NCBI GenBank assembly: GCA_964350785.1
Contig: CAYGMD010000003.1
Span: 1-61,624, forward strand
Source: an uncultured Acidobacterium sp.
Lineage (GTDB): Bacteria > Acidobacteriota > Vicinamibacteria > Vicinamibacterales > UBA2999
Direction: 5' to 3'
Length of the DNA stretch: 61,624 nucleotides
Numbering within the stretch: position 1 is the first letter of the stretch; every line of letters starts with the position of its first letter. Both the position numbers and the translations under genes were made by a program. The notes below the pieces were generated by a model. That model saw nothing but the letters and a program-made list of their open reading frames with translations. It did not search any database and was not told the DNA's origin. Positions 2,683 through 39,586 of the stretch are shown one piece after another.

Positions 2683-2709
2683 TGTAACGACTCGGCCATT
2701 CCGGTAGAC
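2683..2709 (+). promoter_or_regulatory. ECF-type promoter TGTAAC-N15-GTAGAC
   Basis: Same bipartite motif as six other promoters in the window; upstream of the thioredoxin-like gene. Confidence 0.55.
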
Positions 2710-2770
2710 CTACCCAAGGTAAGGCAATTGCCCCCAATCAGAGAGCCTCGTGATGCCATCGAAGAACACC

Positions 2771-3172
2771 ATGCCGACCGTTACCGCCGACACGCACGTG
2801 ATCGAGTACTTCTACGCTCAGGACTGTGCCACCTGCAGGGAGGCCCTGGAGGTCCTCAGGCGGTTCCAGTCGGCGCACCAGGAGGTCTACGTCCTCGAGC
2901 ATGACGTGGCGATCTACGTGGGACTGGCCAATCGATATCGACTGGCGTCCACACCGGCCACGGTGATCAATGGACGAAGGCTCATCTACGGGATCCCCAC
3001 CCTGGAGGCTCTCACCGCCGTCAGTCAGGCAGCCCGGCGCCCAGCCAACGCCGCAACGACTGGCGCCCGGTCTCGGGCGTGGGCCCGGATTCTGGCGTGG
3101 GCGCGGCCCCCGTTGCAGCGCACCTCGAATCGCCTGTCCGGTGACGCGACAATGCGTGGGCTGGTGCGCTGA
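2771..3172 (+). CDS. Thioredoxin/glutaredoxin-like CxxC protein
   Basis: YAQDCATC motif and STPATVING cis-Pro loop; the C-terminal tail looks non-homologous. Confidence 0.75.
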   Translation: MPTVTADTHVIEYFYAQDCATCREALEVLRRFQSAHQEVYVLEHDVAIYVGLANRYRLASTPATVINGRRLIYGIPTLEALTAVSQAARRPANAATTGARSRAWARILAWARPPLQRTSNRLSGDATMRGLVR

Positions 3173-3189
3173 TGCCGCCAGTGGCACGT

Positions 3190-3281
3190 TGCTTGAAAAT
3201 GAGAATCGGCTGGCCTGCAACCGTGGCCGAGGCGGCACCGCCGAGCCCGTTGGTCGCGAGCCACTCGCGGGTCCCCGTCAT
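3190..3281 (-). pseudogene. N-terminal remnant of amylo-alpha-1,6-glucosidase (glycogen debranching enzyme)
   Basis: [23 protein letters not shown] matches the GDE N-terminal REWLxTNGLGGxAS motif; ATGA overlap with the GH63 stop; homology stops after about 25 codons. Confidence 0.7.
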
Positions 3282-5959
3282 TCGCCGCTCTGCTGCAACA
3301 GCTTCGCCACCAGTGCCGTCCAGCCGGTCTGGTGGCTGGCGCCCAGGCCGGTACCGTTATCGCCGTGGAAGTACTCGTGAAAGAGGACCAGGTCGCGCCA
3401 GTGCGGATCCTCCTGGAACTTCGCAACGCCGTCGTGGACGGCGCGGCCGCCCTCGGGCGCCTGGAGGAACAGCCGCGACAGCCGGCGCGACAGCTCCGCC
3501 GCCACCTCACCAAGTGTCAGCATCTGCCCAGACCCCGTCGGGCACTCGACCCGGTAGTCGGCGCCCAGCGAGTGGTGGAACTTCTGCAGCGACTCGATGA
3601 TCAAATAGTTCACCGGCAGCCAGATCGGCCCGCGCCAGTTGGAGTTGCCGCCGAACAGTCCGGTCGTCGATTCGGCCGGCTCGTAGCCGACGGTGTGCGA
3701 GACGCCGTCGACATCCAGTGAATACGGGTGGTCCTTGTGCACGCGCGACAGCGCGCGGATGCCGAACGGCGACAGAAACTCTTCCTCATCGAGCATCACG
3801 CGCAGCACGCGTCGCAGCCGGTCGGGGTTGACGATGGAGAGGAGCATGCGGCCCTTGTGCCCTGGCTCCATGCAGGCACAACCCTCGGTGAGCGCCGGCC
3901 GATGCTCCAGGAACCACGACAGGCGCCGCGCGAATGAGGGCAGCCGTGCCATCGCCTCCGCTTCGACCGACGCGACGGCGAACAGGGGAATCAGCCCCAC
4001 CATCGATCGCACTTTAAGCGGAAAGTGCGTGCAATCCGGAAAGTGCAGCACGTCGTAGTAAAAGCCGTCTTCCTCGTCCCACATCTGCATGCCGCTGTGG
4101 CCGATGTGGTTCATGGCATTGACGATGTAAATGAAGTGCTCACCAAACTTGGTGGCGACATCCTCATACACCGGATCTTCGCGGGCCAACTCGAGGGCAA
4201 TGGTCAACAGGTTGAGCGTGTACATCGCCATCCAGGCAGTGCCGTCCGACTGCTCGAGCCGGCCGCCCGTCGGCAGCGGCTGGCTGCGGTCGAACACCCC
4301 GATGTTGTCGAGGCCGAGAAACCCGCCCTCGAAAATGTTGATGCCGTCCTGGTCCTTGCGGTTCACCCACCACGTGAAGTTGAGCAACAGCTTGTGGAAC
4401 ACGCGCTCCAGGAACGCGCGGTCGCCCTGGCCGGCCCGCTTCTCCTCGATCTTGTAGACACGCCACGCCGCCCAGGCGTGCACGGGCGGGTTGACGTCGC
4501 CAAGCGCCCACTCGTACGCGGGTAGCTGTCCGTTGGGATGCATGTACCACTCGCGCAGCAACAGGATCAGCTGTTCCTTGGCGAAGTCCGAGTCCACCAG
4601 CGCCAGCGGCACGCAGTGGAAGGCGAGATCCCACGCCGCGTACCACGGGTACTCCCATTTGTCCGGCATCGACACGACATCTTCGTTGTGCAGGTGGGTC
4701 CACTGATGGTTGCGGCCGTTCAGGCGCGGCCGCGGCGGCGGCGGCCCCGCTGGGTCGCCGGCCAGCCACTCGTCGACCACGTAGTGGTAGTACTGCTTCG
4801 ACCACAACAGCCCGGCAAAAGCCTGACGCATGACGCGCTGTGCGTCCGGCGATAGCGATGCTGGCGTGACCGTGGCAAAGAACTCGTCGGCCTCGGCCTG
4901 GCGCGTGGCGAAGGTCGCCTCGAAGTCACCGAAGGCACTGCCTTCCCGCTCGAAGACGCGATCGGTGAGACGCAAGCGGCAGGCGAACGAGGCGCCCGGC
5001 GCGATCGTGGTCGTGTAGCGCGCCGCCGCCTTGGTCCCCGCGCGAGCCGGGTTCACGGCTTCGACGCGGCCCTGCACCACGGCGTCGTGGAAGGCGTCCT
5101 TGACGTAAGGCGAGGCGTTCGCCGTGCCGAATAGCCGCTCGGCGTTGGTGTCGTTCTCGGTGAACAGCAACTCGGGGTCGGCGTCGCAGTACAGCCGCCG
5201 CCGGCCGTAGTTTGGCTCGTCCAGGACTACTGTCTGATCGTCGTCGGGCGACACCGCGAGCGACGGCCGCGTACCCGGCACACCCCAGGACCACGTGTTG
5301 CGAAACCAGACTGTCGGTAGCAGGTGCAGTGGCGTCGCGTCGGGGCCGCGGTTGATCGCCGTGATCTTGATGAGAATGTCCTCGACATCGCCCTTGGCAT
5401 ACTCAACAAACACGTCGCAGTAGCGGTTGTCCTCGAACACCCCGGTGTCAAGCAGTTCAAATTCCGGCTGGTCGCGCCCGCGCCGGCGATTTTCCTCCAC
5501 GAGTTGGGTGTAGGGAAACGAGGCCTGCGGGTACTTGTACAGAAACTTCATGTACGAGTGCGTCGGCGTGCTGTCGAGGTGAAAGTAGTACTCCTTGACG
5601 TCCTCGCCGTGGTTGCCCTCGTTGCCGGTGAGGCCGAAGAGCCGTTCCTTGAGAATGGGGTCGTGCCCGTTCCAGAGCGCCAGACCAAAACAGATCCGCT
5701 GGTGACGATCGCAGATTCCTGCCAGGCCATCCTCGTTCCATCGATAGGCACGCGACCGCGCGTGATCGTGCGGAAAGGCCTCCCAGGCCGTGCCCTGCGG
5801 GCTGTAGTCTTCGCGCACGGTGCCCCACGCGCGGTCGCTCACATAGGGGCCCCACCGCTTCCAATGCGCTGCGCGCTCCCGTGCCTCCCGCAAGCGGCGA
5901 TGTTCCGCGGTCGCATCGCCCGCGGAGGACGGAGGCGGCGAGGGCTGGGGAAACGTCAC
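3278..5959 (-). CDS. MGH1-like/GH63 glucosidase
   Basis: 893 aa; [62 protein letters not shown]. Confidence 0.9.
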
Positions 5960-6003
5960 AGATCGACGTTATCGCATCGGCCACGCGGTGGGATCGGGGG
6001 GCG

Positions 6004-6019
6004 TGTGAGTCACCTCACT
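6004..6019. promoter_or_regulatory. CRP/FNR-type box TGTGA-gtcacc-TCACT
   Basis: One mismatch to the CRP consensus; upstream of the GH63 start, which has TAACGT 6 nt before its GTG. Confidence 0.55.
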
Positions 6020-38594: not shown

Positions 38595-38717
38595 CTCGTT
38601 AGAACTGGAATTCGATCAGCACCCCGCAAAGGGCGGCCAGCGCGGAAACGGCGAGCAGGAGCCGGACATACGACTCGATGACGCGACACTGACGTTAGAT
38701 ATGTTACCTGCCCGTCG

Positions 38718-38743
38718 TGTAACGGCACGCCGGAAGGGGAGAC
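38718..38743 (+). promoter_or_regulatory. ECF-type promoter TGTAAC-N14-GGAGAC
   Basis: Upstream of membrane protein 38768. Confidence 0.6.
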
Positions 38744-38767
38744 CACATCAGCATAGGGAGCCCCTCA

Positions 38768-39300
38768 TGAATGCGCGCAACTACGTGCTCGACCGGCCGG
38801 CCGGGTGGTCGCCTGACTCGGCGCTGACCTGGTCCAGCGGATTCCTCGCCACACTCGCCATCAGCACGACGAGCTACCTGCTTCCCGCAATCGGGCTGCC
38901 GCAGGTCGATCTCCCTGTCTGGGTGGCACGGTTGCTTGTCGCCGATCCCGTTCACGTCGGCGCGGTGGGACTCGCGGTGCACCTGGTCGCCGGCTTCACG
39001 TTCGCGTGGCTCTACGTCACGCAGGTCGAGCCACGCCTCACCTTCGGGCCGGGAACGAGCGGCCTGATCTTCGGCGCCGGGCTCTGGTTCTTCGTCCAGA
39101 CTGTTGCTGTGCCGATGCTCGGCGCCATCGGTAGTGTCCTCGGCGCGGTTGGAGGCGAGCCCGGCCTGCTGTCGGCGCGCTTTGGTGTGGCCGCCGCCGG
39201 GGCTAGCCTGGTTGCGCATCTTGCCTATGGCGGTGTGCTTGGCTACGTCTATGGCTGCCGGGGTGGTGGGCGCTGCCGGCGGGTGCGGGAAGCTGGCTAA
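38768..39300 (+). CDS. Four-TM membrane protein of unknown function
   Basis: GLAVHLVAG and [10 protein letters not shown] His-containing helices; GGGAG RBS. Confidence 0.7.
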
Positions 39301-39329
39301 GGTGCCGAGTCCGCCGGCTTCGACACCCA

Positions 39330-39432
39330 CCATCGACACACTCAGTCAACGCCCGGAGTAGTTCGGCGACACTCCACGCTTGCGCAGTGCAGCCCCGCGG
39401 CGTGTGCGGTGGGTCGCCGTCGAACAGTTCGC
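39330..39432 (-). pseudogene. C-terminal remnant of amylo-alpha-1,6-glucosidase
   Basis: [27 protein letters not shown] matches the GDE_C terminal motif. Confidence 0.75.
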
Positions 39433-39560
39433 AGTTGCGGAGTCTCGCGGGGACAGTGGATTTCCGCCCGAAAGTGGCCCCGAGATGCAGGCCACGCAGT
39501 TGGTGGTCCCGGCCGCCAGCCTGCGTTTCTTCTGGCTCGACCGGGCACATTCGCACCGAG

Positions 39561-39586
39561 TGTAACGTTCGGGCCTCCCTCAAGAC
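39561..39586 (+). promoter_or_regulatory. ECF-type promoter TGTAAC-N14-CAAGAC
   Basis: Upstream of bufA copy 2. Confidence 0.65.

Follow-up and report, generated by a model that had tools for sequence, protein, structure and literature searches.

A conserved TGTAAC-type promoter family in Vicinamibacterales, most likely read by an ECF sigma factor with a small soluble anti-sigma factor

We analysed a 61,624-nucleotide stretch of DNA (hereafter the window), the whole of contig C3 in a 5.08 Mb, 375-contig assembly (67% G+C) of an uncultured Acidobacterium sp. of the order Vicinamibacterales. The window encodes two sigma factors of the extracytoplasmic function (ECF) type, ECF-1 and ECF-2, together with bufferin, thioredoxin-fold and pagL genes, and carries a recurrent bipartite element, TGTAAC-N16/17-n(G/T)AC followed by a pyrimidine. 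From its sequence context we propose, with moderate confidence, that this element is the -35/-10 promoter of a Vicinamibacterales ECF regulon, most likely read by ECF-1 in partnership with the anti-sigma factor ZAS76, in a circuit that would be gated by a CRP-family regulator and restrained by anti-sigma feedback. The strict pattern searched was TGTAAC-N14/15-NNN(G/T)AC, which is TGTAAC-N16/17-n(G/T)AC once aligned; domains were called from Pfam and NCBIfam profiles and the gene map comes from our own coding-potential analysis. The exact sites, the sigma/anti-sigma pair and the box upstream of it are:

1538..1563, minus strand: TGTAAC-N16-GGAC, 55 nt from the ATG (1483) of a PD40/WD40 β-propeller gene (2-1483, minus; Pfam PD40)
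2683..2709, plus strand: TGTAAC-N17-AGAC, before a thioredoxin-fold gene (2750-3172; CxxC), intergenic on the gene map
14998..15023, minus strand: TGTAAC-N16-CGAC, before pagL (14273-14989, minus; PagL Pfam match)
15072..15087: perfect CRP-type box TGTGACCAGCATCACA, upstream of ECF-1, at the expected place of an autoregulatory ECF promoter
15126..15773, plus strand: ECF-1, the proposed cognate sigma factor, 215 amino acids, alternative start at 15099; Pfam Sigma70_r2 and r4_2
15672..15697, plus strand: TGTAAC-N16-ATAC, inside the 3' end of ECF-1, 79 nt before the ZAS76 ATG
15776..16006, plus strand: ZAS76, soluble zf-HC2 anti-sigma factor, 76 amino acids, with C4, H30, C34 and C37; Pfam zf-HC2
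25848..25873, plus strand: TGTAAC-N16-ATAC, before bufA-1 (25939-26205), followed by a degraded bufB remnant (26218-26577)
35032..35058, plus strand: TGTAAC-N17-GGAC, before a TonB-dependent receptor-like gene (35085-38114)
38718..38743, plus strand: TGTAAC-N16-AGAC, before a gene for a membrane protein with four transmembrane (TM) helices (38767-39300; weak DUF6789/DUF1440 similarity)
39561..39586, plus strand: TGTAAC-N16-AGAC, before bufA-2 (39653-39919), bufB (39930-40814) and bufC (40798-41637)

The original prediction had described a seven-member motif, and pattern search finds six of its sites exact (2683+, 15023-, 25848+, 35032+, 38718+ and 39561+). Its seventh, 19087(-), reads CGTAAC-N16-TGAC, one mismatch, and lies inside a CRP-type palindrome, and the exact sites at 1563(-) and 15672(+) had been missed. 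Once aligned, the spacer is N17 at 2683 and 35032 and N16 at the other six; the second element ends in TAC at 25848, as first reported, and also at 15672, and in GAC at the remaining exact window sites. All eight are oriented towards a start codon 9-79 nt downstream, and seven are intergenic, the exception being 15672(+) within ECF-1. The flanks and spacers are unrelated to each other, the bufA duplication excepted, so the element is not a repeat; because the bufA-1 locus duplicates the bufA-2 locus from the -35 onward, the sites amount to about seven independent ones rather than eight.

Eight strict matches in 61.6 kb compare with 0.31 expected from shuffles, and none of 100 shuffled windows reached eight. 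The genome holds 24 in total, a third of them (8/24) on the window contig, which makes up 1.2% of the genome, and the extended form TGTAACGTTC occurs four times, each within the window. The 16 matches beyond this contig are consistent with chance, given 273 TGTAAC hexamers genome-wide, and five TGTAAC(N)GTTC look-alikes inspected outside the contig (three of them strict matches) have no coding-type open frame downstream; we therefore rejected the idea of further regulon members elsewhere in the genome. Background across 11 related genomes is 0.6-4.9 strict matches per Mb, scattered except for small clusters in one genome (G036) and a repeated element in another (G037). As genome-wide totals lie near or below a reversed-pattern control they are uninformative, and clustering alone is informative. 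The repeated element in G037, TGTAACGAAGCYTCGCCTCAAACCGAC, is found nearly unchanged on four or five contigs (C3, C38, C143 and C350, and C248) and is likely a repeated or mobile element with a motif-like promoter.

Among the 40 nearest relatives in GTDB, ECF-2 orthologues reach at most 44% identity and bufB is present in just two genomes, so metagenome contigs and an order-wide search were needed. These gave 19 loci with ECF-1 orthologues of 47-90% identity, from four metagenome contigs, three nearby genomes and 12 further genomes of the order; the family is patchy, with 17 of the 251 Vicinamibacterales genomes sampled containing it. Every one of the 19 loci adjoins a gene for a 76-77-residue zf-HC2 protein and has motif sites within 10 kb of ECF-1, and together they contain 45 strict matches in 338 kb against 1.08 expected from the background rate of this genome, an enrichment of about 40-fold near the sigma/anti-sigma pair. 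Orthologous targets in relatives keep the motif, namely pagL, bufA/bufB, the PD40 propeller, the 4-TM protein, the TonB-dependent receptor and DUF3179. An alignment of 28 sites from 10 loci shares (T/C/G)GTAAC and n(G/T)AC, and the 22 non-coding sites give the consensus (T/c/g)GTAAC-G-N10-cgcg-AGAC, AGAC being the preferred -10. With form, statistics, orientation and conservation in agreement, and transcription starts predicted, we conclude that the bipartite motif is a real, conserved promoter family. The original idea of an ECF-type promoter family serving a local regulon is upheld for the thioredoxin-like gene, pagL, bufA-1, the TonB-dependent receptor, the 4-TM protein and bufA-2/B/C, and needs enlarging by the PD40 propeller and anti-sigma genes, which it had left out.

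Several targets can be followed individually in relatives. In G041 the propeller orthologue (78% identity) follows GGTAAC-N16-AGACT, in L047 a Tricorn/PD40 gene follows TGTAAC-N16-AGAC, and the G041 orthologue of the 4-TM protein (64% identity) follows CGTAAC-N17-AGAC. TonB-dependent receptor-like genes have the motif upstream in G041 (7664-) and G036 (12261+), DUF3179 genes in G098, G058, G041 and G036, and TlpA and CcdA/DsbD genes in G036 and L040. The window's thioredoxin-fold gene matches Pfam Thioredoxin_3/DUF1223, in each case under the curated cut-off. The pagL ATG lies about 8-9 nt past the -10 both in the window and in L046 (~5340), where TGTAAC-N16-CGAC is followed by an in-frame ATG 9 nt downstream, and begins a signal-peptide-like N-terminus; because the ATG lies so close to the -10, the pagL mRNA is probably leaderless. 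In G109 pagL is preceded by CGTAAC..TGAC. A relaxed match adds one candidate to the window:

33212..33237, minus strand: weak candidate site GGTAAC-N16-CGAC, 13 nt upstream of a ROK-family gene (32404-33198, minus), adjoined by a CRP-type box at 33245-33260

The bufferin cluster following the 39561 site is of buf1 type and complete, with the DUF2282 precursor, MNIO (MbnB/DUF692) and DUF2063 partner in a row (70.3, 313.4 and 59.7 bits, each exceeding its cut-off). No adjoining DoxX gene was noted, and bufA-2/B/C probably share a transcript with the overlapping ABC transporter genes that extend to 44137. The bufA-1 locus (25848-26577) is a partial copy of bufA-2/bufB (~82% identity; source region 39561-40447) that begins precisely with the -35. 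Its copy of bufB is truncated and has a 256-bp internal deletion, so that a precursor gene is left orphaned behind an intact promoter. Orthologous bufA-type sites are present in L046 (14120+) and L039 (125-), and in G098 the motif stands before both bufB and bufA. The 5' leaders of bufA (window 25874-25938 and 39587-39652; L046 14146-14209; G024) share a stem-loop with an outer stem TGGCCGG/CCTGGCCA and an inner hairpin CCGGG-AUGNA-CCCGG, which may be a regulatory RNA element; compensatory changes occur in two pairs among five sequences, too few to judge.

ZAS76 scores above cut-off with an NCBIfam anti-sigma family, carries HxxxCxxC with an N-terminal Cys, and has 26 residues from C4 to H30. 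The corresponding RsrA ligands run from C11 to H37, a matching distance, while the score of ZAS76 against the RsrA model TIGR03988 is 25.9 bits, under the cut-off of 62.5. ECF-1 itself gives best NCBIfam matches (TIGR02943, PRK12544) that are all under cut-off, and by PDB sequence search its closest solved structure is E. coli σE (E = 4e-17), which does not aid classification; the same search gave no match for ZAS76. The text of the ECF classification by Casas-Pastor et al. (PMC7826278) contains no GTAAC motif table by which a group number could be assigned. Given the co-occurrence of pair and motif, ECF-1 most likely reads these promoters.

The intragenic site at 15672(+) spans the ECF-1 codons E-V-C-N-V-L-E-I-S-D-T of region 4.2. 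Across 18 aligned ECF-1 sequences, the window included, its first element is TGTAAC in 16 and TGTAAT in two, the -10 is degenerate in 2/18, and the codons read C-N-(V/I)-L-x-(I/V)-(S/T)-(E/D)-T some 80 nt upstream of the anti-sigma start. All 20 sequences examined use TGT for this Cys, a codon that accounts for only 14.8% of Cys codons, and synonymous positions nearby vary freely. Where ZAS76 genes stand alone or are duplicated, the motif is found in the non-coding DNA upstream (L040 4504-, G152 9368+).

On its own strand no ECF-1 orthologue examined has the motif upstream. Just upstream of ECF-1 lies instead TGTGA-N6-TCACA, in the window and in L045, L046 and L047. Allowing one mismatch at most, the window holds ten such CRP-type boxes (at 1579, 6004, 6789, 9521, 10654, 15072, 19079, 30341, 33245 and 33632) against 1.1 expected, several of which precede ECF-1, a gene joining thioredoxin and CRP domains, DUF3179 and the selenocysteine (Sec)-type AhpC/DsbD_N gene; they look like a second, interleaved regulon. 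ECF-1 also has a CRP-family gene nearby, at 9543-10547 in the window and, in L045, immediately upstream. The window gene is a single 334-residue frame that joins a thioredoxin fold to a cNMP-binding/Crp helix-turn-helix regulator, and its two parts are separate genes in L045 and L046; because G109 has a full-length, 85%-identical match, the fusion is suggested to be real in close relatives.

Two genes of the window contain in-frame TGA codons, at 19491-19493 in DUF3179 (W-*-P-L-C), where the split is conserved in L039, and at 33911-33913 in the AhpC-TSA/DsbD_N gene (W-*-P-Y-C). In the ECF-2 operon, a paralogue with Cys (16018-17100) has W-C-P-Y-C where the AhpC-TSA/DsbD_N gene has W-*-P-Y-C. 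Both TGA codons are probably selenocysteine codons.

Taken together, we propose the following circuit. A CRP-family regulator acting at the 15072-15087 box would govern the promoter of ECF-1, which would not be positively autoregulated and would be held inactive by ZAS76, whose Cys4, His30, Cys34 and Cys37 are spaced like the zinc/redox ligands of RsrA. A cytoplasmic thiol-reactive signal, possibly an oxidant, an electrophile or a soft metal such as copper, would free ECF-1 to transcribe about eight local units (the PD40 propeller, thioredoxin-fold, pagL, bufA-1, TonB-dependent receptor, 4-TM, bufA-2/B/C and ZAS76), and transcription of ZAS76 from within the region-4.2 codons of ECF-1 would close a negative feedback loop.

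Several points weigh against this proposal. The assignment of the sigma factor is drawn from co-occurrence, and the transcription starts are predicted. G036 has TGTAAC clusters and no detected ECF-1/ZAS76 pair, only a ZAS-less paralogue type and no close ZAS76, in an assembly that is 87% complete; and an ECF-1 paralogue on contig C78 of the present genome, 69% identical with a near-identical recognition helix, could read the same sites. Conservation of the intragenic site is partly protein constraint, because it overlaps the conserved codons C-N ... E-T, and ZAS-less paralogues keep TGT there (TGT-GAC and TGT-GCC in C78 and G036). The window CRP box comes from a pattern search, and that it recurs ahead of ECF-1 orthologues is a judgement by eye. 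As for the signal, it is a guess based on ligand spacing in ZAS76, whose RsrA score is, as noted, far under cut-off, and many proteins of the ZAS type do not sense redox state.

A broader picture can be drawn only tentatively, and we give it somewhat less than an even chance. The ECF-1 family would be a feedback-only switch, in which the sigma factor is under a CRP-family regulator and never self-transcribed, and the one promoter that it directs at itself is embedded in codons for its -35-recognition helix and drives just the small redox-type anti-sigma factor. Such a regulon would link bufferins that chelate copper with outer-membrane remodelling and (seleno)thiol-redox proteins, in parallel to a SigR-type ECF-2 and a CRP regulon of Sec/Cys paralogue pairs.

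Foremost among the alternatives is that another sigma factor reads the motif, alone or with ECF-1. Two candidates are encoded elsewhere in the genome:

Contig C78, 2895-3515, minus strand: ECF-1 paralogue, 69% identical, with no adjacent anti-sigma gene and a nearly identical region-4.2 recognition helix
Contig C20, 9477-10931: second sigma/ZAS pair, divergent from a 4-TM gene; its orthologous counterpart in G024 (C14, ~107.7-112 kb) is divergent from bufABC-DoxX-AhpC/DsbD_N

Besides the likeness of its helix, the C78 protein has in its favour that in G036, with its TGTAAC clusters, just this ZAS-less type of paralogue was detected. The C20/G024 sigma, 31% identical to ECF-1, adjoins bufABC or the 4-TM gene, and in G058 bufABC is flanked by both sigma types. 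Before bufA and the 4-TM gene stands a related element, (T/C)GTAAT-N16-GCAC, and the divergent promoters overlap face to face, GTAAG-N15-(G/T)GAC lying on the strand opposite to that element. These promoters nevertheless deviate from the motif at both elements (GTAAT and GCAC), in this genome neither C78 nor the surroundings of the C20 sigma contain a strict site, and G024 has neither ECF-1 nor motif clusters. Motif density peaks at ECF-1/ZAS76 in 19/19 loci, most of them without a C20/G024-type sigma among tblastn matches within 10 kb. We consider another reader, alone or beside ECF-1, unlikely, if still worth keeping in mind, and retain ECF-1 as the most likely one.

The original prediction had instead connected the motif with ECF-2, through the site at 19087 and autoregulation. 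The features concerned are:

18414-18959, minus strand: ECF-2, heading an operon with a 215-residue ZAS, a TlpA-like protein and an AhpC-DsbD_N protein
18997..19022, minus strand: GGAAT-N17-CGTT, ECF-2's own SigR/SigH-type promoter, between the CGTAAC element and the ATG, the sole such site in the window and outside the TGTAAC family
19062..19087, minus strand: doubtful site CGTAAC-N16-TGAC, 103 nt before ECF-2, overlapping the CRP-type box 19079-19094
19079-19094: CRP-type palindrome TGTGTTACGGATCACA, containing the 19087(-) element

Orthologues of ECF-2 (70-92% identity, some labelled Vicinamibacterales) always occur with a gene for 212-217 residues and with thiol-disulfide genes; the former matches zf-HC2 in four of five distinct contigs, mostly weakly. 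Thiol-disulfide genes of the ECF-2-operon kind (TlpA, DsbD/CcdA) do carry TGTAAC promoters in L040 and G036, and the CGTAAC element upstream of ECF-2 is conserved in L039, though only in this 92%-identical relative. Against this, GGAAT(A/T)-N16-CGTTT precedes the ECF-2 orthologue, or a small gene before it, in L040, L042 and L044, and the best NCBIfam matches of ECF-2 include SigH/SigE-type models. Contigs with ECF-2 and without ECF-1 have no TGTAAC site in 44 kb, and many motif-rich loci have no ECF-2 orthologue. The 19087 element lies inside a CRP-type box whose centre is ~60 nt upstream of the predicted start of the divergent DUF3179 gene (σ70-like TTGACT-N15-CATACT); we rate it doubtful for this reason, and it may be a cascade input or a coincidence. 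With its own conserved promoter closer to the ATG, motif-free ECF-2-only contigs and a motif that follows ECF-1/ZAS76, we rejected ECF-2 as the reader, an assignment that now seems very improbable. The original observation was real and stronger than reported, and its regulon idea right, but its sigma factor was probably wrongly chosen. Least probable of all, and scarcely credible, is that a DNA-binding regulator uses the element as its operator, or that the element is an artefact of chance or repetition: the promoter reading does involve predicted starts, and CRP-type boxes lie close to three sites (1579, 19079 and 33245), but the element is asymmetric and bipartite with a spacer fixed at 16-17 nt and variable in sequence, strictly faces genes at 9-79 nt from their start codons, resembles known ECF promoters, is enriched 40-fold near the sigma/anti-sigma pair across genomes and, the bufA duplication excepted, is not a repeat.

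If ECF-1 is the reader, an ECF sigma family of Vicinamibacterales, a soil order that is abundant but barely cultured, gains a promoter consensus open to testing and a defined regulon, and the corrected assignment matters for reporter or heterologous-expression work. The present analysis would also place bufferin operons outside Proteobacteria under a sigma system of ZAS rather than NrsF type, despite the common -35 element. The compact circuit, with a CRP box, an intragenic anti-sigma promoter and no upstream autoregulation, may be of interest as an orthogonal part in synthetic biology.

An intragenic anti-sigma promoter has a precedent in E. coli rseA P3, a σE-dependent promoter that lies within the coding sequence of rpoE and from which the anti-sigma operon alone is transcribed (PMC8595263). 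In both cases the anti-sigma factor has a separate, sigma-dependent promoter within the sigma gene, leading to negative feedback. rseA P3, however, supplements a σE-dependent promoter upstream of rpoE, while no ECF-1 orthologue has such a promoter upstream, and the ECF-1 site overlaps codons of the -35-recognition helix and leaves a leader of ~70 nt compared with 228 nt in E. coli.

The thiol-oxidative stress switch SigR-RsrA (ECF12) of Streptomyces likewise has a small soluble anti-sigma factor, and ZAS76 places Cys/His/Cys/Cys at RsrA spacing; the proposed ECF-1 targets include a thioredoxin-fold gene, with more thiol-redox genes in the neighbourhood. Unlike ECF-1, SigR is positively autoregulated, and the GGAAT-type promoter, corresponding to the SigR consensus GGAAT/GTTG (PMC5005934), belongs in the window to ECF-2; ZAS76 also falls well under the RsrA cut-off. 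The closest whole promoter is that of B. subtilis SigX, with a -35 TGTAAC and a -10 CGWC (as quoted in PMC12153292). The two consensus sequences are almost identical, three sites in the window and relatives reading TGTAAC-N16-CGAC, and both regulons modify the cell envelope, here through pagL and the TonB-dependent receptor gene. SigX differs in belonging to an unrelated organism and sigma lineage and in its membrane anti-sigma factor RsiX, and the preferred -10 here is AGAC; ECF-1 matches NCBIfam SigX models weakly, far under cut-off.

The likeness to the ECF16 systems is in gene content and in the -35. The regulon of Caulobacter SigF-NrsF (ECF16) includes the buf1 and buf2 bufferin operons (PMC11626156, PMC3511200), and related systems are EcfF-OsrA and BcrS-AbcS (PMC3420878, PMC8315932). 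Both there and here an ECF sigma factor is associated with bufferin (DUF2282/MNIO/DUF2063) operons and oxidative or metal stress genes, with a (T/C)GTAAC -35 and a spacer of 16-17 nt. The ECF16 promoter is (T/C)GTAAC-N17-CGAA (PMC8315932, PMC3420878), so that the -35 matches its GTAAC element and the -10 differs, as the original prediction held: the window has n(G/T)AC-pyrimidine in 8/8 sites and never CGAA. The anti-sigma factor is a 76-residue soluble zf-HC2 protein in contrast to the six-TM NrsF/DUF1109, ECF-1 has no motif-type promoter upstream whereas ECF16 sigma factors are autoregulated, and the host phylum is Acidobacteriota. NrsF (PF06532) gave no match above cut-off in the genome, with a positive Caulobacter control, and a SigF-NrsF system hidden elsewhere in it was therefore rejected. 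The window system is probably not ECF16, as its anti-sigma factor is not NrsF, the genome has no NrsF and the -10 differs. Bufferins have a known role with copper and in Caulobacter are controlled by SigF, with which the membership of bufferins in the proposed ECF-1 regulon agrees (PMC11626156). Bufferin clusters have been reported together with sigma and NrsF genes (PMC12452194), and the pairing of bufferin clusters with a ZAS-type sigma system seen in the window, G098 and G058 is a variant of that arrangement.

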